Assembly (NCBI GenBank): GCA_964486045.1
Contig: CAZALK010000009.1
Span: forward strand, 1-64,000
Length of the DNA stretch: 64,000 nt
Direction: 5' to 3'
Source of the DNA: an uncultured archaeon
GTDB lineage: Archaea; Asgardarchaeota; Lokiarchaeia; Sigyniarchaeales; SOKP01
Shown here piece after piece: positions 1 to 13,477 of the stretch. The notes below the pieces were generated by a model. That model had not been told where the DNA came from and searched no databases. It saw nothing but the letters and a program-made list of their open reading frames with translations. Position numbers and translations under genes: made by a program. The stretch's first letter is position 1, and each line of letters opens with the position of its first letter.

Positions 1-3000
1 ATCACACTCCGGTTGAAAAAACAATTCAAATTGGGGTAGAAAAAGTATATTTTGCAAAGAAATTCGTTGGCTATGATTATAATTCACTACCCAAGTATGC
101 AGAATTAATGCTCGTAAATACAGATGACTCATTAAATTACTCAAGTTTTACCGATCCTTACTATTACAGTACTTCCATAGAGCTTACTCCATTCAGTACT
201 GACTATTTAGGTACTTATAGAGATATTTTAGTTGAAATAAACCTTACTACCCTAGACCAATTTGCAGTCGACGGCTTTATAGATTTTACCAACTTGCTCT
301 TCTCAGTTCCTAACCCCGCCTATGAACTTACTGTCCATGAATTTGCGATTGTCCAAGAATCTCATGATCTCACAAATGAATATGATAGTATGAATGCAAG
401 AGTATGGCAATTTACCCACCAAGTAAACTTTACTTCCAGTACCACCCCTGAGATTGACGGATATATTCCTATTTTCGAGGAAACTCCCCTCTTCTTTAAT
501 GATGCAGACGAAGAGAAATGGCTACAACATCTCAAGATTTATGATGAAAACTATAATTATTATTCAGCAGGAGTTCTTGGAAGTTCTAATGAAGATGACT
601 ATCAGCTCTTATACGACTCAACCACCGGAAATATCACATGGAACCAAGGATTTGACAAATTCCAAGAATACTGGGGAATGGAAATTGAACTTCCTGCCTT
701 AATAGAGCCTAATACCACAATTTATTTTGAATATACTTTCAATAACTCATGGAACGAACGCCTCGAATTACGATATGAGAACATTGATGCCTACTCTCTA
801 GATGTTATCTATAAGTCAGATTACTTGCTAACACCTCGATACGAGCTATGGTATGACGAGCTTGTTGTTAACGATGATGATTATGATTATGAAACTGTTC
901 AATACTACGCTGAATCATTTACCGTATATGAAAATAAAGCATCTCACTCCTATACATTTGAAACCGAGTACAATTTCACCCAAGATTTCTTAAATCTCAC
1001 TTTATTTAAGGTTATTGCTTCCTATCCGAATTTCACTAAGGCAACCATTGAGGATGATAATATATCTTATAGTATTGATTTTAATATCACAAATAACGAA
1101 ATAACAATTAATGATCTAGATTCTGGAGATGGAGTTCTTAACCAATTTGATCTCATAACAGTAATTTTAAATTTTACAGCAGGTCCCGTTTCCCAAAGAA
1201 CGTTTCTAAATTTCTCAACTAATTTCAACCAAACTTATTTGACCGATCCTGAAGCCACTTTTTATGACTATCATACCATTTCATTTGCGTATTTAGAAGT
1301 ATCGCCTGAATATCTTCTATCAGAGGATGCTCAGACCATAGTTTCCAGTTATACAAGTTTTGAGTCCATCGATTATATACGCAACACTGAATTAGCTATT
1401 GACCAACACTTAAAAGGATTTAATTCCAGCTCCCGCTTTATTAATTTTGAGGTTATCGAAGATCCTTATAACGTAATTTATGAAGCTGACCTTGATCAAG
1501 ACGGGGAGGTTGATTACAAACAACAGATTGATATTGACAAAGATGGACGGATAGACATAACGAAATTTGGTGTTATGAACAGTAGTGGAAGCGAGATTAT
1601 ATGGTATCGTGTTATTCAAGACTTTGAATCGGTTGAGACCACAATTGATGAAAAAACACCCGCCGAAAAAAGAACCAAATGGTTTAGTTTAGATTATAAA
1701 TCGACAGATAACTTCTATGGCTATGCGATGCGCTCCTCACAAGAAAGGGTAATTACAACACAGACTACACGTACCGTGTTTTATGCGGTATCAGTTGATC
1801 TTGACTTAGACGGGTTTACAGACTCTCATGTCACTTATCAGAAGAAAACTGATTCCATTGAAGTAGATAGCTATTTAGATGAATGGACCGCAATTTTCGG
1901 ATTTCGCGATAGTATCTTAACCCAAGGTCTTAGTAAATCTCCACGGAATTACTTAAGCGCAATCAACAAATATATCACTGTTGAAGGTATTGAAACCGGA
2001 AACTTTACAGACTTTTTCATTAAAGATGCTGCATCTACATCCACAGCAATAACATTCATACGTGATACTTATACAAAATACAATGAGCACAATAGAACTA
2101 CCTATTTCAATGATTTTATTACTCAAGAAAGTCTAACATATAGCGACTGGGAGGAAGGAGAATTAATAGAAGTTCGCGAATATTCCAATAAATTTGAGGA
2201 TGAATTTGATATGACGACTACCACCGATATCGAATCTACAGTCAAAACACTCTCAATAATAAATGAGGAAACCAACCAGCAAGTCGAAACGGATGCACTT
2301 CCATTCTTAATAACTGATCCTGCAGGTTTAAATTGGAATACTGAGACGTGGGGTGTTGATAATGTTCCTATGGAGTTTGAAACAGTCGCCACCAAAACGG
2401 GAGATAATGGCTACGTGGTGGAAAACAGACTAGAACGTAATATTATTATTAGACTTAATGATCGGTTTAGTTTATACCACGATTACTTAAAAACAGATCC
2501 AAAAGCAGATGATATTGTCGGATCTACCTTATTTAGAGTTAACGGAGTATTTGTAACACCTCCTGATGGAAAAGTGTACCATACTTCTGACAAGAATGCC
2601 TTTTCTACAGGAGAAGGAAAGATGAATGGTCATTATCTCTATTACGATTCAGATGGTAATGCATTTTATGAAACAGTATTTATTTTGACTCCCGATGAGG
2701 ATGGGGATGGAATTTACAATGTGATTTCAATTGGGTTTAATTATGACGGAAAGCATGATTTTGAGCCTTATCAAGTTTTAAACGAAGATAATCCAGTCGG
2801 GTTTAATTCTGTGTCTCAAACTTATAGGAGTGAATATGAATATGTTGATTCTATGAACGGTTATGCGACATATATGTTCCATGGAGACAGTAATGAAATG
2901 AAGAACTTCATGAAGGCTCATTTCCCCTTATCTGATTTTGATAAATATATTCCTAAAGACCAGATATTTGAGATTTCGAGACTTATGCCCTCTGCTGAAC

Positions 3001-6000
3001 TTAATCAATATGCTCCAGACCTCTTCCTTCAGGTATATACTCATTGGTATGGTGAAACGTGGAATGTATATAGGGGGTCTCTTAATAGTGATATATGGGA
3101 GCAGGTTTTAATGATCGCTACAGCGGGAATAGCTACGGCAGTTATAGGGGTTGGTCTTGCCGCTGTTGCAATCTCAACATTGGGAGCAAGCGGAATAGGG
3201 ACTATAGCAGGTATTCTTTTTGCCATAATCTACTTCGGTCTGTCCGTAGCATCACAAGAGGAGAAACGCCAAATTCAAGCTCAACAAGTTGCATCACGTA
3301 CTTATTATAATCTTAACGAAGACGGTACATACATTGAAGACACACGGAGTCCTAAAACTTTAAGTGATAAAAGGGCTGACGAAGTCTATAACTTATATGA
3401 ACACCATCAAGGGCACCCCAGTGCGAAATACCTGCCAGTAAGCGATTCTGAAGGGTTATATAATGGACAAGCAATTGTTACACCTCCGAAGACACTCCGA
3501 ATAGCAGGCTCGACTCTTGATTATTCGGACGCCACTCTTAATAATCTTATTAACACTCTTGATACTAGCAAACTAAGTCGTCTATCAAAAAGTGGTGAGA
3601 CAATCCTTTTAGATGGGGAGGAATTAACTGCTGAAACATTAAGAAATTATCCACGAGTATTACAATACTTATTTAATGGTAACAAGATGTATACGGCATT
3701 AGTCCATGGTTCAACATCATATTCTAACCTTGATTATTTCCTTGTTTCCAGCGAGCTTCCTGCTTACAACGAGTATGATAATTATCAATTTACACCTAAT
3801 AAAGACACCGCACGAACAAGAACTTATTCGAAATATCCACTTAACAGTATCGGGGCTTTAGAAAATGCTGTAAGTACAATGTCCCTTAATGAATTTAACA
3901 CCATTAGGCCATATAGCATAAATGGACGCCCTGCGTATGGGTTTATTGATGAATACAGTAATGCATATCACCTAACGCAGCCTCGTTCCGGCCTCTACAG
4001 ACCCATCATAGTGAGTCAACAAAGATACAATGAATTAGTAGACGAGGGAATAAATACGGGTGGTACTATTTCGATCGATCTTAGAACCGGAATATACGAT
4101 AAATATCCTTGGTTCGAAGGTAGTTCCATCCCTCGTGGGATTAATGAAAATCTTACTTATGCGGAAATAGAGAAAGGTTATAAGGTAAAAGTCCCGCTTC
4201 TTTCCAAGAGCTTTGGGTACAATATTACCATGATTACTTTAGATATTTTAGAGTTAGAGACAATAACTCATATTTTATCAAGCTGGGATGTACAATGGAT
4301 GAGCGAAAATAGAAAAGAGGAGTTAGGTGTCAGGTTTAACACAAAGACAAAAGTATGGTACTATACAACAATTGACATCCTAGAATTTGAAACCGATATC
4401 GAAATAGACGAAAATGATTACATAATCGAAGGAGGGAATTTATACTTCACAATTTCACTTGATGATTTTGTAATAGAGAAATATCCACAGCCAGGATTTT
4501 TAGTACTGCAAGAAGTTTGTTCTTATAAAATTCATATTCATATCGAAACCGTAATCCCAGATACAGAAGCGAGTAGAGAACTCTTTACTCCAGAGGAAGT
4601 GTATGCTTCGATCGACTTTTTCGGAGATAATAACGCAGGCTTCTATTTGAATCCAAGTTCATTAGTATTAGACACAACTACAAGTGACATTGCTAAAGAC
4701 GCTCTTGCCCAGACCGTCTCATATCTTATCTCTGACTATGTGAGCGTACACACTCTTGCTATTGAGCTTTCACAATCTCAAGTTGAAAAAGAATATACTT
4801 CACACATCACCCGTGTATCTACATTGCTTACTTCGATTATTCTACTTATCCCAACCGTTCTTTCTGCTGGTGCCATATCTGGTTTCAGCCAAGCAGCAGC
4901 CAATGCAGCTATACTCGCTGGAGGGGGGAAGATTACAATGTCGGTCACTAGAGCTATTCTTTTATCTCTGCTGAAAACTTCTATATCCTACATCGCATCC
5001 ATCCCCGTTCAAGTCATCGGGGAGGAATTAGAAGAGCTTTATTTAGATCCGTGGATTGAGAGTGAAATGATCAAGATGGCTGTCCGAACCGGTACTCCAC
5101 GCGAGGTCGGAGAGTTCTGGGCTATGTTTGTGTCCTCTTTCAGAGAAGCTTTCTTAGGTGCTGGTAGTGCTATTGTAGGAGGGATTAAGGGTTCCGGATC
5201 AAGTGATATGAAAGTAAATTTAGAGAATAATGTAGAGATCGCTATAGATGCCCAAAATAAAGCAGATTTCGAATCCGCACTTGAATTTGTAGATGTCATA
5301 TATGACGAAGTTTTTTATTCAGATTCAATTTCTCAGACTTCTACAAGAGCTGAATTTGATACATCCATAGCAAGTATAACTAATCAGAAGAGGAAGCATA
5401 ATTTCGCGAGCCTTATCAGTTCCGACAGGTTCTTTAGCATACTGGCTTCGGTCCCAAGCTTTTTTGTAGGCGCTGGAGGAATATCAACAATGACTCAACT
5501 CCTTGACTTAAGTACCGACCTAATATTTGAGCTTGAGCTAGGCAGGCTCATTGATAACAAGTTTATTCTTGATCCAATACTCGATGAGCTAAATGAGGGT
5601 AGAAAGATCCATGAATTAGTACTTAAGAATAAAGAAGCCTACAAGAAATATTCAAATGAGATAGAAGTAAAAACTATCTCTGCTGTTAAGGGTCTTTCTT
5701 CTGCTATTAACATAGCCTCCTTATTTGACCAAGCCTCAAGTAACGTCCCACAAGTCACAGCTCAATTAATGTTTAAGCAATTAGGAGAGAATCTCCAAAG
5801 TTTAAAGGTGATAGGTAAATCAAAGCAAATACAATATATTCTAGAGCAAAATCTACAAATTCAAGAAAGTGTGGTTCCAATTGTTTACGGTGCTGATGAA
5901 GCATATATCTTTGACGAAGAAGTTAGAGCTTTCTCCACTTTCTCTTATAAAAGAGCGACCAGCAAAGCTTCAGTCACGGAATCATTAGAAGGTGTAAAGG

Positions 6001-9000
6001 TTGTATATAAAAGAGGAGACCATCCAATAGACGTAAAGCGAGAAATAGGTTATCAATGGAGGAATTTTATCATTACAAAAGACCGAGTTGTAACTGATGA
6101 AGGACATGAAGTAATGCGTGACTTTTCTCAAGAATGGATATTATATGACGTGCTGCGTATTTTGGGCTATGAGTTTACCTCTGATTATATGACAAACCCC
6201 GACTCCCAACTTCAGATAGTCTACATCGAAGGTAGTCAGATTCAAGATACCGATTTTATCAAAGAGCAGTTCCCATATTATTATGAATTTATTATAGACT
6301 CGGATACAGATAATAAAGCTGTTTTCAGTACAATCTTTAAAGGAAGATTAGGTACATTGGCCTATACTTACAAAGAATTTGAGATTTTAGATAGGGTGTT
6401 TAAGTATGTTAAGAAAGAAGCTGATATATTTACCCATTCCAACTTCTATCAAAACAATGAATTTGATGCTAACAAATTCGAGAAATCATTTAGAAGTTAT
6501 TTCAATATGAAATGGAAAGGCGTTGAGAAAAATGCAAGAGATGTTTTCTATGATGTCGTATTCGAACCAGGTCTTACCCGAGCAAAAACTGATAAGTCAC
6601 TTAGCAAATATGCTACCAAACAAGCACAATATATCATTCTGGATACTGTTATGAGAAATCTTGCTGAAATTGATGTTGGAGAAAATCTTAAGTCTTCTGA
6701 AGTACTTGCTAAGATAGAAGAGGAGATGGGTAGTTTGCATAATACCGAGATAGACAAATTGAAGATATTCAAAGATTTAAGTAAATTCATGAAATCTCCA
6801 AAGACAGGAATGCCTGCATTTTTTGAAGTATTCATGGAGGGATTTTTTGATAGTACAAAAACGTATTTATCATTTTCATCTACAATTCAGAAAATAATAG
6901 CGAGATATATGGAATCCCATAATGCAATGGACGATCTCCCAAATAAACTTATTAAGATATTTCAAACAGAAGAGTTTGTCGCTTGGATAGATGGAATGAA
7001 TTATGGAGAGACGGGAAAAGATCTAGAATTGAATAAATATTTCGATTACATAGATGTAGGTATTGAGGAAATTGAATCAATTCTATTTAGTTCCAACATC
7101 AATAGGCTCAGAGCTGGTTTGAAATCAAATACTTTTAATCCAGATGTAGGTGCAAATCTTCTTACTTCCTTGGCTCTTTATGCGATAGAATCAAAAAACA
7201 CTAAAGACTCAGAAGTAAGACCTACGGCCTTGAAAGAAGTGGGAAGAGATTTGTTACGAAGTGCATTTATGCTGACGATAATCGAATTGAGCAAAATTGT
7301 GAAGAGTGGTCAAAATCTCAGGTTGAAGGACTTGCGAAGTCTAGGATTATCGGCTTCAGTCGTCTCTCTTAACGGATTTGTAGATTTAGCTAATATAATA
7401 ACCTATATGGGCGAGACAACACGGTTCAGTCAGTTTAAATCTGGTAAAGTGTATAAAATGCCAAGCTTATACACTTTATTATCTTTATCTGCCGGAAAGA
7501 TTAATCAAAGGGGTGTTGAGTCCTCTGGTAACATGTATGCTATAATAGATTATATTAACTCAAATGATTTTATCTCGGATGTAGAGGATTTGGTACCACA
7601 AGCATTCAACAAAGAACATGTCAAAGACTTTGATAAAAATTTTTATAAAGAGGTACAAAAATTCTTTAGCGATAATTTTGATAATTTTAGATCCCCAACT
7701 GCTGACAATACAGGTTGGGAAATCTCTTTTGGGGAAAGTTTCAACATATTATTCAAGAAGACAGACAGTAGTGGAGACTTAGTTAAAAGGAGAGTGAAAG
7801 ATCTTCCTTCAGACATCAAGATTTATGAGAATGGAGAGTGGGTGATATTGTCTGACAACCTAAAGCTTGAATATCCTACAATGAGCGCAACACAAATACA
7901 GGAAATGGAATTAGATGCAGCCTACATGATCGTACATGGTTTGGAAGGTAACAGTTTAATCAACGGTCTTTTCAAGGTGGAAGAAGTGAAGAATAAGCTC
8001 CCAACTGGTATTAAAGAAGGATATTATGATCAATCAACTAAAAAAGTACACCACAATATATTTATTAGTGATGCATTTGGTAATTTCCTCTATAGCAAGA
8101 TTGAGTTCGAGTCTCGTAGAACCATGAGCGAAGTAAGAATTCGTCCAGAAAATTGGCATCTTACCTTTGTGGGCAAGAATACGGAACAAGACTTATTTGT
8201 GGCCTTTAGTATGACGTCCGGGAGTCAGTTCTCGTGCTTTTTATTTGATACAAAGGTTGATATTTTGGTAAAAAGCCCATATAATGATTATTTTAAAGGA
8301 GAAACATTTGAGCAAAAGCGTAAGAGAATTACCATATCGGGTGATACTCGTTCTCCTGATTTTTCTCAAGAGGGGATTACTATGACGAAAGAAGTGTTTT
8401 TACGTGATTATTTCCACTATGCATACTCAGGATATTATGCAGGGTTTAGCGCTCTTCCTGTATCAATAAATCCCTATGCGTCCAGCACTTTTGATGAGTT
8501 AAACGTACAATTTAAGATCGATGAAGAGAAGATCGATTATAATACTCAACGGAAGAAAGTAGTAGTCGAGGCAATAATCAATGAAATCTTTGATTCCAAT
8601 AATGATATGGAGACATTTTTATTATCCGATGGGAGAGATAGCAATGGAATCTTAATGCCTAGAACGACAAGTAGTACAACTCAAGTTGTTACTAAGAAAC
8701 AGTGGATCAAGTGGATGTTTGATGTATTAACAGATCCTACTTTAACGTCAAAACTACTCCCAGAAGGTATGAATCCTACCCACGATTTAATAAGGAGAGC
8801 AATCGGGAAATTAGATGAGTTAAAGAAATCAGGACCTGATTCAAATCCCGTTGATATCACTACGGACATAATCAATTATGCTACTGATTTAGAAGCTCAG
8901 AAAGCCAAAAGCATTTTTAACATCATTAAAGATTTACTTGGACATAAGACTATCCGAAGCATCTTTATGCATACAATTGATTACTATGAGGAAGGTGGTT

Positions 9001-10280
9001 ATGTTTTGGAGACAACAACACTCAGGAGTTTCGAATTAATGGAGAAGGTTTTTGAGTTGTATGGGTTTGTTTACCCTACATATAATCCAAATTTGGACTC
9101 GTCAGTGTCTAAGACAAGAACTCCGGATAGTAACGGTATCCATAAAAATATTTTCCATTACTTGTATGGGAATGCCTATTTCAGTTTTACTGTTGTTGAC
9201 GGTAAAGAATATAAAGCAGATTTAGGATATTCTCCAATGCCTTTCTTACCTCCAGGTACTATCTTGTCACGCGCAAGTGTAGATACTGAGCTAATTGGAT
9301 TATTTGAGTCACATTATAAACAAGCATATGCTCCTAGTAAGCAAAATGATATTTATGTTAAAACAGAGGCATTTTTCGAGAATGGTCTTGAATTATTTAA
9401 GGCTATGGAACAGAGGATTAGGGACACTTTGGTAGCTTTATCGTTAGTGGATAACTCTTTTGTATATGATGAGAATCTAGTACAAAATACATTGTTTAAG
9501 GTTATGGCCAATTTACAACAGATCGGACGCTCAGGTCCTTTGTCACCTAGACTTCAAATCGATGATTTGATGACTGATAGGAGCTTTTCTAGAATAATAA
9601 CTTTTGATAAAATACTAGTTGGAACCCAACCTTTAAAGATAAGATTAACAAAACAAGATTTGGATGGAAAAGATATATTTACTCTACGCAGAAAGGGCTT
9701 CTTTAAGGTTAGTGATATCGATTTCGACAAAATAAACATGGTCGCAATAAATAATAAGCTAGCAGGATTATGGACACTTTTAAGTGATTATACAGGAAAA
9801 ACTATCGAGTTTTATTTCTTGGAAAATGTCGGTGAGGAAGGTTGGCAATATATAGGTCTTACCCCTGGCGCTCCAGCTTATGACTTCGTTGCTGCGAGTG
9901 AGAGACACACACGTAATGCTCCATCTTATGTGGAGATTAATGTCGATCAGCTGTTTAATGGTGATATCAGTGAAATGCAGAAATTATTAAGAGTAATCAA
10001 AGTATCGATGGGATTTAAGAAAACTCTTACTGGAGGAACTCGAATGGGATTTCTGATGTCAGATGGGACTGATATTATTACCGCTTTTGATGGCCAAGCG
10101 TTTTATTCGTCTAATGATTTTATTTCTAATAGGTATACTGGGGGTGGTGGAACAACGAGATATTACCTCGAGGTGGGACTAGTAGACTTTGAGGGTGATC
10201 AAAATCTAATCGATTATGCAAACATATTGTGGACATCTCAACTATTCTATTACAAGAATTTAGCGAATTTTATTCTATGA
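1..10280 (+). CDS. Giant (>3,400 aa) putative surface/secreted protein, 5'-partial; acidic Ca-binding N-terminal region, hydrophobic helical segments, long unassigned C-terminal region
   Basis: The ORF track starts at ATG 108, but the same frame is open from position 3 (HTPVEKTIQIGVEKVYFAKKFVGYDYNSLPKYAEL-M), so the gene begins upstream of the window. DxDxDG-type motifs occur at ~1488, 1530, 1797, 2646 and 2694. Hydrophobic Gly/Ala-rich segments lie at ~3100-3255, 4815-5020, 5110-5200 and 5430-5490. Confidence 0.85.
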   Translation, partial: HTPVEKTIQIGVEKVYFAKKFVGYDYNSLPKYAELMLVNTDDSLNYSSFTDPYYYSTSIELTPFSTDYLGTYRDILVEINLTTLDQFAVDGFIDFTNLLFSVPNPAYELTVHEFAIVQESHDLTNEYDSMNARVWQFTHQVNFTSSTTPEIDGYIPIFEETPLFFNDADEEKWLQHLKIYDENYNYYSAGVLGSSNEDDYQLLYDSTTGNITWNQGFDKFQEYWGMEIELPALIEPNTTIYFEYTFNNSWNERLELRYENIDAYSLDVIYKSDYLLTPRYELWYDELVVNDDDYDYETVQYYAESFTVYENKASHSYTFETEYNFTQDFLNLTLFKVIASYPNFTKATIEDDNISYSIDFNITNNEITINDLDSGDGVLNQFDLITVILNFTAGPVSQRTFLNFSTNFNQTYLTDPEATFYDYHTISFAYLEVSPEYLLSEDAQTIVSSYTSFESIDYIRNTELAIDQHLKGFNSSSRFINFEVIEDPYNVIYEADLDQDGEVDYKQQIDIDKDGRIDITKFGVMNSSGSEIIWYRVIQDFESVETTIDEKTPAEKRTKWFSLDYKSTDNFYGYAMRSSQERVITTQTTRTVFYAVSVDLDLDGFTDSHVTYQKKTDSIEVDSYLDEWTAIFGFRDSILTQGLSKSPRNYLSAINKYITVEGIETGNFTDFFIKDAASTSTAITFIRDTYTKYNEHNRTTYFNDFITQESLTYSDWEEGELIEVREYSNKFEDEFDMTTTTDIESTVKTLSIINEETNQQVETDALPFLITDPAGLNWNTETWGVDNVPMEFETVATKTGDNGYVVENRLERNIIIRLNDRFSLYHDYLKTDPKADDIVGSTLFRVNGVFVTPPDGKVYHTSDKNAFSTGEGKMNGHYLYYDSDGNAFYETVFILTPDEDGDGIYNVISIGFNYDGKHDFEPYQVLNEDNPVGFNSVSQTYRSEYEYVDSMNGYATYMFHGDSNEMKNFMKAHFPLSDFDKYIPKDQIFEISRLMPSAELNQYAPDLFLQVYTHWYGETWNVYRGSLNSDIWEQVLMIATAGIATAVIGVGLAAVAISTLGASGIGTIAGILFAIIYFGLSVASQEEKRQIQAQQVASRTYYNLNEDGTYIEDTRSPKTLSDKRADEVYNLYEHHQGHPSAKYLPVSDSEGLYNGQAIVTPPKTLRIAGSTLDYSDATLNNLINTLDTSKLSRLSKSGETILLDGEELTAETLRNYPRVLQYLFNGNKMYTALVHGSTSYSNLDYFLVSSELPAYNEYDNYQFTPNKDTARTRTYSKYPLNSIGALENAVSTMSLNEFNTIRPYSINGRPAYGFIDEYSNAYHLTQPRSGLYRPIIVSQQRYNELVDEGINTGGTISIDLRTGIYDKYPWFEGSSIPRGINENLTYAEIEKGYKVKVPLLSKSFGYNITMITLDILELETITHILSSWDVQWMSENRKEELGVRFNTKTKVWYYTTIDILEFETDIEIDENDYIIEGGNLYFTISLDDFVIEKYPQPGFLVLQEVCSYKIHIHIETVIPDTEASRELFTPEEVYASIDFFGDNNAGFYLNPSSLVLDTTTSDIAKDALAQTVSYLISDYVSVHTLAIELSQSQVEKEYTSHITRVSTLLTSIILLIPTVLSAGAISGFSQAAANAAILAGGGKITMSVTRAILLSLLKTSISYIASIPVQVIGEELEELYLDPWIESEMIKMAVRTGTPREVGEFWAMFVSSFREAFLGAGSAIVGGIKGSGSSDMKVNLENNVEIAIDAQNKADFESALEFVDVIYDEVFYSDSISQTSTRAEFDTSIASITNQKRKHNFASLISSDRFFSILASVPSFFVGAGGISTMTQLLDLSTDLIFELELGRLIDNKFILDPILDELNEGRKIHELVLKNKEAYKKYSNEIEVKTISAVKGLSSAINIASLFDQASSNVPQVTAQLMFKQLGENLQSLKVIGKSKQIQYILEQNLQIQESVVPIVYGADEAYIFDEEVRAFSTFSYKRATSKASVTESLEGVKVVYKRGDHPIDVKREIGYQWRNFIITKDRVVTDEGHEVMRDFSQEWILYDVLRILGYEFTSDYMTNPDSQLQIVYIEGSQIQDTDFIKEQFPYYYEFIIDSDTDNKAVFSTIFKGRLGTLAYTYKEFEILDRVFKYVKKEADIFTHSNFYQNNEFDANKFEKSFRSYFNMKWKGVEKNARDVFYDVVFEPGLTRAKTDKSLSKYATKQAQYIILDTVMRNLAEIDVGENLKSSEVLAKIEEEMGSLHNTEIDKLKIFKDLSKFMKSPKTGMPAFFEVFMEGFFDSTKTYLSFSSTIQKIIARYMESHNAMDDLPNKLIKIFQTEEFVAWIDGMNYGETGKDLELNKYFDYIDVGIEEIESILFSSNINRLRAGLKSNTFNPDVGANLLTSLALYAIESKNTKDSEVRPTALKEVGRDLLRSAFMLTIIELSKIVKSGQNLRLKDLRSLGLSASVVSLNGFVDLANIITYMGETTRFSQFKSGKVYKMPSLYTLLSLSAGKINQRGVESSGNMYAIIDYINSNDFISDVEDLVPQAFNKEHVKDFDKNFYKEVQKFFSDNFDNFRSPTADNTGWEISFGESFNILFKKTDSSGDLVKRRVKDLPSDIKIYENGEWVILSDNLKLEYPTMSATQIQEMELDAAYMIVHGLEGNSLINGLFKVEEVKNKLPTGIKEGYYDQSTKKVHHNIFISDAFGNFLYSKIEFESRRTMSEVRIRPENWHLTFVGKNTEQDLFVAFSMTSGSQFSCFLFDTKVDILVKSPYNDYFKGETFEQKRKRITISGDTRSPDFSQEGITMTKEVFLRDYFHYAYSGYYAGFSALPVSINPYASSTFDELNVQFKIDEEKIDYNTQRKKVVVEAIINEIFDSNNDMETFLLSDGRDSNGILMPRTTSSTTQVVTKKQWIKWMFDVLTDPTLTSKLLPEGMNPTHDLIRRAIGKLDELKKSGPDSNPVDITTDIINYATDLEAQKAKSIFNIIKDLLGHKTIRSIFMHTIDYYEEGGYVLETTTLRSFELMEKVFELYGFVYPTYNPNLDSSVSKTRTPDSNGIHKNIFHYLYGNAYFSFTVVDGKEYKADLGYSPMPFLPPGTILSRASVDTELIGLFESHYKQAYAPSKQNDIYVKTEAFFENGLELFKAMEQRIRDTLVALSLVDNSFVYDENLVQNTLFKVMANLQQIGRSGPLSPRLQIDDLMTDRSFSRIITFDKILVGTQPLKIRLTKQDLDGKDIFTLRRKGFFKVSDIDFDKINMVAINNKLAGLWTLLSDYTGKTIEFYFLENVGEEGWQYIGLTPGAPAYDFVAASERHTRNAPSYVEINVDQLFNGDISEMQKLLRVIKVSMGFKKTLTGGTRMGFLMSDGTDIITAFDGQAFYSSNDFISNRYTGGGGTTRYYLEVGLVDFEGDQNLIDYANILWTSQLFYYKNLANFIL

Positions 10281-10312
10281 TTTAAAAAATTTAAGATTTA
10301 AGCTAACTTTTA

Positions 10313-10321
10313 TTTTTTTTT
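10313..10321 (+). terminator. Oligo-T tract, putative archaeal-type terminator after the giant gene
   Basis: T9 run ~30 nt after the stop codon at 10280. Similar T-runs follow several other genes, e.g. ~26219-26238 and ~40277-40284. Confidence 0.35.
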
Positions 10322-10405
10322 AATTTTATGATTTTAAATAGTTAATATCAAAAATTCAATTTCGAGAATTCATTATATTTATATTTCAATACTATTTGTA
10401 TTTTA

Positions 10406-11227
10406 ATGAGGATGGCAATCAAAGAGTTTGTTGTTAGTAAACATATTTCAATCAGATTAGAGGGTACAGAGATTTATATCTATATCGACGGGAATCGTTT
10501 CAAGCAATGTGCCAGCTTAGTATTAAATATTCCCATCGACAAGATTGAGGATTTTGATGATATTAAATCTATCGAGGAGGCTGTAGAGAGGCTAGAATCG
10601 ACAGAAGGGTGGGATCAACTCAGTTTGGAATATCATATATCCCCTGAAGAGGAGTTCTTCGGTCATTGCTCAAATATTCAAGCATGGTACGAAAGTGGTT
10701 ATAATTCAAATATCTTACATTATACTTTGTCATTTAGTTTGCTTCAAGAATTGGCTAAATATGATTCGGTAGCAAAAGCTGTTTTAAGGGAAGAAGTTGC
10801 TAAAAGATTAGCAACCGGCTACGAAAACGTGACTAATTACATTTATGAGTCTCGTCTTATTTTATTATTATCCCATGATGAAATTTTAGATATACTATTG
10901 CATCCAGAGGATGCTGAGATTTTCCATGAGCTTGAATCTGTGTTGCAAGCTAAGGTTTATATATCAAATGAGGATAAATTCCCCAGATATTCCTACTCCG
11001 GTCGTGACTATTTAGCTACTGTTGAGGATAGACGAATCGTGAGTTTACGTTTAGGGTCTTCAAAGCTGGATATAATTCCTGATGTAATATGCAAATTTAA
11101 AAATATTACAGACCTGTTTTTCAAAGACCTTAATAATTTAAATTATCTGCCAGATCTATTAAAACATCTCTTTATTTGGCAAGACAGCGATTTTATTTGG
11201 CACCCTTATGAGCGTCTTGATACATAG
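10406..11227 (+). CDS. Lokiarchaeal LRR-associated family protein (conserved N-terminal domain plus 1-2 degenerate leucine-rich repeats)
   Basis: N-terminal motifs EFVVSKHISIRLE..IYIYIDG.RF.QC..LVLNIP and ISPEEEFFGHCSNIQAWYE..Y.S.ILH..LSFSLLQEL, recognised from an expanded Lokiarchaeia family. The C-terminus is LRR-like: IVSLRLGSSKLDIIPDVICKFKNITDL. Confidence 0.7.
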   Translation: MRMAIKEFVVSKHISIRLEGTEIYIYIDGNRFKQCASLVLNIPIDKIEDFDDIKSIEEAVERLESTEGWDQLSLEYHISPEEEFFGHCSNIQAWYESGYNSNILHYTLSFSLLQELAKYDSVAKAVLREEVAKRLATGYENVTNYIYESRLILLLSHDEILDILLHPEDAEIFHELESVLQAKVYISNEDKFPRYSYSGRDYLATVEDRRIVSLRLGSSKLDIIPDVICKFKNITDLFFKDLNNLNYLPDLLKHLFIWQDSDFIWHPYERLDT

Positions 11228-11278: not shown

Positions 11279-11623
11279 TTAATTAAAAATCCCGATATGC
11301 ATCCCTGAGCCTGCTGAGCCGCATTGTCTATCTAAAGAGAAGGATGGAACTGTTACTGGAAATCCCGCTAAAAAGAGTGGAATTCTTCCCCCATATGACC
11401 AATTTTCTAAAACCCCCGCAGCAACACCTACCGAAACTTCATTGATATCTCCTTTTTGTATGCCCTTATCAGCTAATTTCTCGTCAAAAAATTTCATGAG
11501 TAATTCAGCTAACAACTCATCTCCTCTAATTTCACCGAATACGTCTCTTTCAGGTTGTTTAGCTCTTGAGCGAGAGAAAGCCGTTCGAGCATAATCGATC
11601 AACCACACTTCTTTAAGATCCAT
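11279..11623 (-). pseudogene. 3'-truncated acetyl-CoA acyltransferase (thiolase), N-terminal 114 aa only
   Basis: Typical thiolase N-terminus (VWLIDYARTAFSR...DINEVSVG...VPSFSLDRQCGSAGSGMHIG) including the nucleophilic Cys, then IFN-stop. The C-terminal His/Cys catalytic half is absent. Confidence 0.85.
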
Positions 11624-11787: not shown

Positions 11788-12591
11788 ATGAATAACAGGG
11801 AAAAAGAAAAAAAGGGAAAAATCGACAAAGCTAAAACCTTACATCTTGTAAAACCTCGTGTTTCTCCCATAAATGAAGTAGATTTTATTAAAGAGTTATA
11901 CGATTTTAATAAGGCTATGGATCACTTACAATTTGGGAAACAAGAAAGTTTCGATTCAGAATGGGAGAGTGAAATGCATTCTCTTGTGCAGTGGTTAAAA
12001 AACTATAATGAAAGTATGCTTAATGATTTATCATCCTTTCTTAAACTAAATGAAAAGGGATTAAATATAGATTCAATTAATTTTGATGACTATGAGGACT
12101 CCATTAAATCATTTATTTACGAAAAAGGCTCTATATATAATATTAGGGCTACAATGACCATGCATAGGAGATTGCGGTTGAAATGGATATTAATGGCAAG
12201 TCACGTGACGTACGACTCCTCACTTCCTCCACGCGAGAAGGAAATATTGATTTTACGTAATGCGTGGCTTTGTAGGTGTGAGTATGAATGGGATCATCAT
12301 GTACTTGTTGGAAAACGAACTGGTCTTTCGAATGAAGAGATTGATCAAATAAAAAAAGGTCCTGATGCTCAAGGATGGAGTCCTTTTGATATGACGTTAT
12401 TATGTGCCGTTGATGAACTCCATAAAAACAAGATAATATCAAATGAAACGTGGAAATCCTTATCTGAACGATACAACACACAGAATCTTATGGATTTGAT
12501 ATTTGTTGTTGGAGCATACAACATGCTAGCTATGTTTATGAACTCTTTTGGGCTTCAAACAGAAGATTGTGTAAAAAAAATGCTTGCTTGA
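11788..12591 (+). CDS. Carboxymuconolactone decarboxylase/AhpD-like family protein, paralog 1
   Basis: SSLPPREKEILILRNAWLCRCEYEWDHH...GLSNEEIDQI...LLCAVDELH...MDLIFVVGAYNMLAMFMNSFG. Confidence 0.85.
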   Translation: MNNREKEKKGKIDKAKTLHLVKPRVSPINEVDFIKELYDFNKAMDHLQFGKQESFDSEWESEMHSLVQWLKNYNESMLNDLSSFLKLNEKGLNIDSINFDDYEDSIKSFIYEKGSIYNIRATMTMHRRLRLKWILMASHVTYDSSLPPREKEILILRNAWLCRCEYEWDHHVLVGKRTGLSNEEIDQIKKGPDAQGWSPFDMTLLCAVDELHKNKIISNETWKSLSERYNTQNLMDLIFVVGAYNMLAMFMNSFGLQTEDCVKKMLA

Positions 12592-12667
12592 TTAGAAGTA
12601 AAAAGAAAGAAAATTTAATTAAATCAGAGTATTCATATTTCAAAATAGAAATTTTGTGAACTTGAAA

Positions 12668-13477
12668 ATGAATGAGGAAAAAAAAGACGATCTAAAAAGG
12701 AATCTTAATAGGGATGGACTCTTGAAGTTTAATTCCTCCCGGGTTTCTCCTCTAAATGAACTAGAATATGTACAAGGGTTAATATCTTCCCGCCAGGCGG
12801 TTGATAACATAAAGTTTGATGAAAAAAGTGGTGAAAAGTCCGAGTGGGATAGTGCAGTTTTGAGTATAATAAGAGAATTGAAGGGGGGTCCAAATTTCTA
12901 CATGAATCCTATAGCTCAACATTTAAAACTCGCTGACAAAGGGTTAGATTTAAATTCAATTAAACTTGAAGATTTTGAAGAACCTATTAAAGATTTTATA
13001 AAACAAAAAGCTACCATTTTTCACCTTAGAGCTACCTTGATGAGACATAAGGATCTTTTCTTAAGGTGGGGTTTATTCGCAAGTCAGGTATTTGTTCATT
13101 CAGACATCCCCCCTCGAGAAAAAGAAATTATTATCTTACGAATTGCTTGGCTTAGTCAATCGGAATATGAATGGGAACATCATGTAGCTGGCAGTAAACG
13201 GGGAAAACTTTTTTCTGATGATGAAATCAATAGGATTAAACAAGGTCCAAATGCAGAAGGGTGGGATGATTTTGAGTCTACACTAGTTCTAGCCGTAGAT
13301 GAGCTTTATTCCAAAAATTGCATGTCAGACTCAACATGGAAAATTCTCTCTGAACGATTTAACACAAATCAACTCATTGAAATTCTTTTCATTGTAGGAT
13401 ACTATAACCTGTTGGCATTAACAATGAACACTCTTGGTGCTCAAGTAGAAAGTATGTATAAAAACATTCCAAAATAA
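12668..13477 (+). CDS. Carboxymuconolactone decarboxylase/AhpD-like family protein, paralog 2
   Basis: IPPREKEIIILRIAWLSQSEYEWEHH; aligns end to end with paralog 1. The start is probably ATG 12668 (the track uses GTG 12656). Confidence 0.85.
   Translation: MNEEKKDDLKRNLNRDGLLKFNSSRVSPLNELEYVQGLISSRQAVDNIKFDEKSGEKSEWDSAVLSIIRELKGGPNFYMNPIAQHLKLADKGLDLNSIKLEDFEEPIKDFIKQKATIFHLRATLMRHKDLFLRWGLFASQVFVHSDIPPREKEIIILRIAWLSQSEYEWEHHVAGSKRGKLFSDDEINRIKQGPNAEGWDDFESTLVLAVDELYSKNCMSDSTWKILSERFNTNQLIEILFIVGYYNLLALTMNTLGAQVESMYKNIPK

Follow-up and report, generated by a model that had tools for sequence, protein, structure and literature searches.

Contact-dependent inhibition of type Vb (CdiA/CdiI) combines a giant stalk tethered to the cell, a membrane-inserting region near the end of that stalk, a C-terminal toxin and an immunity gene, and orphan tip/immunity pairs belong to the same picture. 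For polymorphic toxin systems more generally, LRR proteins are listed as an immunity class, Imm-LRR (Zhang et al. 2012, PMC3482391). Among archaea, Asgard archaea encode the most proteins of more than 10,000 aa (bioRxiv 10.1101/2023.11.21.568195), and in the literature that we searched no function was assigned to Asgard proteins of this size. Asgard giants also include Otus and Ephialtes, the aloposon giants of Heimdallarchaeum, which are encoded by tandem 3,000-6,000-aa genes integrated at tRNAs (PMC8813620). We found no paper that describes the giant system of Lokiarchaeia considered here; a 2019 survey of archaeal polymorphic toxins lies outside the literature covered.

Our analysis concerns a window of 64,000 nucleotides, which starts with a giant ORF followed by a co-oriented gene for a 273-aa protein (Table 1). 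Both had been reported in the initial annotation, the former as an ORF of more than 3,400 aa that is open past the window edge. Base 1 of the window is also base 1 of contig C9, part of a 5.2-Mb assembly, so the open 5' end, cut by the contig edge, is an assembly break. A chance ORF or an assembly artefact is ruled out by independent paralogues and relatives. Pfam and NCBIfam gave no significant match to either the giant ORF or the 273-aa protein. Comparing these sequences with their relatives, we think it likely that the locus encodes a contact-dependent polymorphic toxin of Lokiarchaeia, with the C-terminal tip of the C9 giant as the toxin and the 273-aa protein as the protective partner. 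A toxin delivered by contact, paired with an immunity gene, is also what the initial annotation had proposed. Its genomic predictions (swapped tips, nuclease tips and a linked partner) held up, and the toxin and the immunity protein are candidates for these roles.

The spacer between the two genes is AT-rich and has a T-tract, and a separate promoter may serve the partner gene. On the other side of the partner gene, 52 bp away, ends an N-terminal thiolase fragment of 114 aa (11279-11623, minus strand, Pfam E 1e-6). Its end is possibly the insertion junction of the putative toxin locus, or else a deletion point. The two tandem genes of the carboxymuconolactone-decarboxylase family at 11788-13477 are ordinary and unrelated to that locus.

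Table 1. Features of the giant ORF and its neighbouring gene (nucleotide positions in the window; residues of the 3,425-aa ORF)
Feature	Position	Strand	Basis
3' part (3,425 aa) of giant membrane-anchored protein	3..10280	+	complete relatives of ~11,000-20,600 aa
Distal extracellular stalk, acidic, sequon-rich	3..3092	+	94% identical to C10 paralogue
Two DxDxDG loops (residues 496, 510), putative calcium-binding	1488..1547	+	motif; weak EF-hand matches, E 0.08-0.7
DxDxDG loop (residue 599)	1797..1814	+	motif
Variant loop (residue 882) and DxDxDG loop (residue 898)	2646..2711	+	motif
Gly/Ala-rich hydrophobic hairpin 1 (residues 1031-1086)	3093..3260	+	sequons scarce beyond hairpin
Family-defining hydrophobic block (residues 1556-1860), putative translocation module	4668..5582	+	profile
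Ubiquitin-like beta-grasp domain (residues 1975-2078), single Gly end; candidate release handle	5925..6236	+	AlphaFold2
Candidate PD-(D/E)xK-type nuclease domain	6810..7502	+	motif only: E2304, P2380-D2381, E2396-x-K2398, D2416, K2485
Remainder of class-A tip, folded domains without match (residues 2500-3425)	7503..10277	+	structure model and fold search
AT-rich spacer, 125 bp, with T-tract	10281..10405		between giant ORF and 273-aa gene
273-aa GHCSN-domain protein, ~2 degenerate LRRs; candidate immunity or partner protein	10406..11227	+	family comparison

Relatives of the giant are found in genomes of Promethearchaeota. With a profile of the hydrophobic block as the query, we detected the family in 52 of the 134 genomes of the host's Lokiarchaeia family and in 3 of the 265 other genomes searched in the phylum, with open frames of up to 11,000-20,600 aa. 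Residues 1-1900 of the C9 giant align to residues 9373-11229 of a complete relative of 12,778 aa at 50% identity. If the C9 gene is of similar length, then roughly the final quarter of it lies in the window; a search of the assembly did not recover what precedes it. At its N-terminus the relative has a basic soluble region, after which come about 8 strong transmembrane helices and then some 9,700 residues that are acidic, rich in sequons and include a laminin-G domain. Complete relatives combine a multipass anchor with a stalk of about 10,000 aa. The regions upstream of the complete giants at two loci (L036 and L047) have genes in common: a PadR-like regulator, a caspase-like secreted protein, a divergent membrane protein, and genes with NERD and ParB domains. 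Together these may form an accessory or mobile module.

The part of the stalk preserved in C9 carries 18 sequons compared with 11.5 expected. It also contains four strict DxDxDG loops, whereas shuffled sequences average 0.11 and never reached four in 2,000 shuffles. At least five such loops had been claimed; four of these are strict and the fifth (DSDGNA) is a variant. Judging from the motif, the loops would bind calcium.

Hydrophobic clusters lie at nt 3093-3260, 4803-5009 and 5430-5486, where they had been placed before. With Kyte-Doolittle peaks of 1.6-2.2 they are weaker, and more Gly/Ala-rich, than the helices of the N-terminal anchor, which peak at up to 3.0. The family-defining block contains five invariant residues, E1674, E1678, D1682 (followed by P), R1714 and E1715 (window 5022-5147), which could form a pH sensor, a metal site or an autocleavage site. 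A sequence search for a relative of the block with a solved structure found none.

It is around this block that the tips are exchanged. The C9 giant and its C10 paralogue are 94% identical over residues 1-1000, identity drops across the hydrophobic block, and the tips are 24% identical, compared with a shuffled baseline of 23%. A near-identical stalk that carries a tip at background identity means that the tips have been swapped, which is the conserved stalk and hydrophobic region with a swapped C-terminus that had been predicted. The swap boundary lies in, or just past, the block (the DNA similarity between C9 and C10 stops at nt 5594). The C10 tip in turn shares 38% identity with a tip from a different species, the stalk of which is only 58% identical, and anchors that are 83-96% identical bear differing tips or partners.

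What is swapped in is often a nuclease-type domain. Among the 75 tips, some contain GIY-YIG, LAGLIDADG or ubiquitin domains according to Pfam, and tips with HNH and PD-(D/E)xK domains, as well as one C39-like peptidase, were assigned by motif. Four more distant paralogues in the same genome end in HNH-, GIY-YIG-, PD-(D/E)xK- and HNH-like domains (motif reading). Some tips contain helix-turn-helix-like arrays, for example after GIY-YIG. Headless orphan tips are scattered across the genome, and orphan tip/partner cassettes, a feature of polymorphic toxin systems, lie at C8:79139-85003, C8:148443-151331 and C3:72463-76512 and on C11, C5 and C23. A relative of 20,619 aa ends with a partly class-A-like region and a C39-like peptidase motif (L043:8062-13302). 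In another genome, a giant of 12,291 aa has a second tip behind it, an orphan that comes with an LRR partner of its own, which makes a tandem cassette array (L082, G272:C185:34500-54000).

One could also argue that the giant serves a mobile or selfish element as its means of delivery by contact. In that case the tip would be a site-specific endonuclease whose cuts in recipient DNA serve transfer, homing or self/non-self sorting instead of killing, and the partner would restrain it in the donor. Many tips do resemble homing endonucleases (GIY-YIG with helix-turn-helix-like arrays, HNH, LAGLIDADG), the giants are patchily distributed and multicopy, and two complete giants share upstream genes with PadR-like, NERD and ParB matches. 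However, integrase, relaxase and transfer ATPase are absent among the ten upstream proteins scanned, most 3' flanks of the giants are without tRNA, and one query run against viral contigs brought up no relative. The peptidase-like tip and the many headless orphans are also better suited to toxin cassettes. We regard a mobile-element device of this kind as unlikely.

If the giant is a toxin, then its tip has to leave the cell that makes it. The N-X-S/T sequons suggest that it does, and they provide the strongest of our new evidence. The 75 tips contain 2 sequons compared with 455 expected, a purge of about 200-fold, with control motifs at expectation. There are 0 in the C9 tip (11.8 expected) and 5 in 150 further class-A relatives (777 expected). 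The controls behave differently: soluble proteins of the genome have 0.91 of the expected number, the partner proteins 137 versus 155 and K/R-rich tails of membrane proteins 84 versus 90. Nor is there any depletion in the N-terminal tails of the giants, and free-standing PD-(D/E)xK relatives of one nuclease tip are sequon-neutral. N-X-S/T glycosylation has been shown in the Asgard archaeon P. syntrophicum (PMC11284389), and AglB/STT3 is encoded in the genome studied here. Because sequons are purged from tips while cytoplasmic controls are neutral, it appears that the tip meets the glycosylation machinery on the outer side of the maker's membrane and yet has to remain free of sugars. This would be expected of a domain that is threaded through a membrane later on. 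Export of the tip, which is one of the marks of a polymorphic toxin, is thus indicated indirectly, through the anchor in complete relatives, the sequon-rich stalk and the purged tip.

The same observation bears on the main alternative of the initial annotation, a giant multipass receptor or adhesin. In such a protein the C-terminal part would never leave the cytoplasm of the maker, where its output would be signalling or DNA binding, regulated by the LRR protein. This would explain why the composition of the tips is cytoplasm-like, why some of them carry helix-turn-helix-like arrays and why there are several hydrophobic helices. A cytoplasmic tail, however, should be sequon-neutral like other tails, and the purge strongly contradicts this. 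Moreover, the distal helices differ from those of the anchor as described above, and the tips have been exchanged for unrelated nucleases. A receptor is therefore very unlikely.

That the tip appears to be exported would also suit a stalk with exoenzymes on display. In Lokiarchaeia, peptides are fermented together with partners, and nucleases and peptidases on a stalk could harvest extracellular DNA or protein, or condition the syntrophic partner. Yet the stalk itself tolerates or even favours sequons, so an enzyme that stays outside needs no purging, and a cytoplasmic partner gene matched to the tip class would be needless. We consider this explanation to be very unlikely.

The C9 tip itself is not a unique domain. 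At about 1,560 aa, a size far above that of typical toxin tips, it is one member of class A, a divergent family of homologous tips of about 1,400-1,850 aa. Of 1.84 billion proteins, about 160 are related to the second half of the class-A tip, and a search of the ESM Atlas with the C9 tip returned no usable match. The tip had been described as Lys-rich, which turned out to be true only relative to the stalk: lysine makes up 7.8% of the tip and 3.8% of the stalk, compared with 8.3% genome-wide.

It had also been described as lacking any recognisable domain. This remains correct for residues 2500-3425, which match nothing, but not for the first part of the tip, where an AlphaFold2 model (pLDDT 70) contains a beta-grasp domain whose best structural matches are nearly all ubiquitin-like. 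A Gly-Gly end is absent from this domain, which has a single Gly2077 instead. In several relatives the ubiquitin-like domain is similar to a free ubiquitin-like protein encoded in this genome, and its end is Gly/Ala-rich. A free ubiquitin-like protein with a Gly-Gly end (G000:C10:126155-126445) shares 42-51% identity with the corresponding domains in two further tips.

Further along, in residues 2270-2500, E2304, D2381, K2398, D2416 and K2485 are conserved and spaced as in PD-(D/E)xK nucleases; the E...(P)D...(D/E)xK catalytic constellation of this superfamily is present. The D and the K are invariant in 46/46 aligned rows, E2304 is found in 40/42 and D2416 in 41/46, where some rows are near-duplicates. 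The glutamate of the ExK is E in only 21/46 rows. Pfam, PADLOC, PDB sequences and the PD-(D/E)xK profile of another tip did not match this region. At the motif the model has a pLDDT of 40-48 and places D2381 at a helix start. Fold searches with both tip models matched only the ubiquitin-like domain, and whole-model searches were dominated by other domains; with models of 816 and 906 residues, single domains may be missed in such searches. With the model unreliable at the motif, and profile and fold searches negative, we call the domain a candidate nuclease on the basis of its motif.

The 273-aa protein belongs to an LRR-associated family, as its N-terminal GHCSNxQxW domain indicates. Its best Atlas match (0.92) is an Asgard LRR cluster and its two or so degenerate repeats align with the repeats of relatives. 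It matches neither a Pfam LRR nor the LRR pattern, and the earlier assignment holds for the LRR-associated family, by way of the domain. The GHCSN family has 47 copies among the approximately 4,100 genes of the genome (a base rate of about 1%) and far outnumbers the giants. A member adjoins 16/18 class-A tips compared with 6/56 other tips, as well as the tip in all three hold-outs (independently fetched metagenomic loci with downstream DNA). In this genome one lies within 200 bp of 9/11 class-A tips or remnants. The partner is convergent with the giant in 12/18 class-A loci.

Overall, LRR or GHCSN proteins make up 42 of the 74 partners, and other tip classes have partner classes of their own. 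The adjusted mutual information between tip class and partner class is 0.45, compared with a maximum of 0.17 in 5,000 shuffles, although permutation and Fisher figures overstate the significance because the loci are related and not independent. The linked and co-varying downstream gene that had been predicted is thus found, and the protein beside the C9 giant probably protects its maker. A second expanded family of small proteins (motif LRKIRNNLR), a candidate second immunity family, follows another tip class (L046, L063, L064, L085, L086, L089, L090, L108; G000:C13:8102-8701) and also occurs in tandem arrays (L058).

It is conceivable that the giant is a polymorphic toxin and the 273-aa protein is not its cognate partner, being a general chaperone or adaptor, or a hitch-hiker from the expanded family. 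The number of family copies, their mixed orientation and the roughly two degenerate LRRs would be in line with this. So would a mirror-tree test within class A, in which partner similarity did not significantly follow tip similarity (best rho 0.22, p 0.05), and the closest paralogue of the gene (61%), which is found unlinked, beside a ribosomal operon without a toxin. In a poorly resolved partner tree (quick method) class-A partners do not cluster, and the family is abundant even in genomes without a detected giant. Against this, the linkage survives inversions and is seen even where tips share no more than 10-25% identity, and almost every decayed class-A remnant in this genome keeps a GHCSN-family gene at its 3' end. 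A non-cognate partner is improbable.

Returning to the toxin and its cognate partner, we infer how delivery, release, catalysis and immunity might proceed. Stalk and tip would be exported past the oligosaccharyltransferase AglB, and the stalk would be glycosylated, with calcium making it stiffer. When two cells touch, the Gly/Ala-rich hairpins would enter the membrane of the neighbour and thread the sugar-free tip inside. A deubiquitinase-like protease would then free the tip at the end of the ubiquitin-like domain, which would point to another Asgard cell as the target. Once free, the C9 tip would act as a PD-(D/E)xK-type nuclease. The size of this tip, the absence of a Gly-Gly end and the variable ExK glutamate speak against parts of the scheme. 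The cytoplasmic GHCSN/LRR protein would protect the maker and its kin, and would persist when the toxin gene decays.

The full scenario is a tentative one, somewhat less likely than not: a contact weapon of the Lokiarchaeia's own, whose N-glycosylated stalk (10,000-20,000 aa) would pass a sugar-free nuclease into another Asgard cell, to be released there by ubiquitin-processing proteases, while the expanded GHCSN/LRR family would partly be an immunity library that has accumulated. If true, recognition by LRRs and the cleavage of ubiquitin fusions would be linked to conflict between cells in relatives of the ancestor of eukaryotes. It also suggests that ubiquitin-like domains may be used as release handles. 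One family of Asgard giants and the expanded LRR-associated family would gain a testable role in such conflict. The sequon purge also offers a simple genomic test for archaeal domains that are exported and then re-enter a cell.

How does this system compare with those already described? Like the aloposons, the Loki giants are Asgard giants of unassigned function in variable regions (PMC8813620). Unlike aloposons, they are single 11,000-20,000-aa genes, mostly without a flanking tRNA and nearly confined to one Lokiarchaeia family. There is no tRNA in the window and there are 2 in 43 giant loci, one of them several kb from the 3' end of the giant. With no tandem giants integrated at a tRNA, membership among the aloposons is ruled out. 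Homing endonucleases (GIY-YIG, HNH, LAGLIDADG) and PD-(D/E)xK nucleases are the likely source of many tips. In contrast to the free enzymes, the tips are fused in frame to an exported carrier and are sequon-purged.

With CdiA/CdiI the Loki giants share the layout of tethered stalk, insertion region, C-terminal toxin and immunity gene, as well as the orphan pairs, toxin and immunity being candidate roles in Lokiarchaeia, and they would work in a similar way. Pfam and NCBIfam scans that covered the C9 ORF together with residues 1-9446 from the complete relative found no haemagglutinin-repeat, pre-toxin or two-partner-secretion domains. The Loki giants also differ from CdiA in that there is no outer membrane, in being anchored by at least 8 helices, and in being two to five times longer.

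With polymorphic toxins (PMC3482391) the Loki system shares a conserved N-terminal carrier, variable C-terminal tips that are often nucleases, a tip-matched downstream partner and orphan cassettes. It departs from them in several ways. None of the toxin-delivery families in Pfam or NCBIfam matches the carrier, and the giants have a multipass anchor, a sequon-rich stalk and tips of 400-1,850 aa. A ubiquitin-like domain precedes many of these tips, and the partners are mostly of the LRR type (42/74) and often convergent. As far as gene content and arrangement can tell, the Loki system would fit the genomic definition of polymorphic toxins, with a carrier outside the described families.
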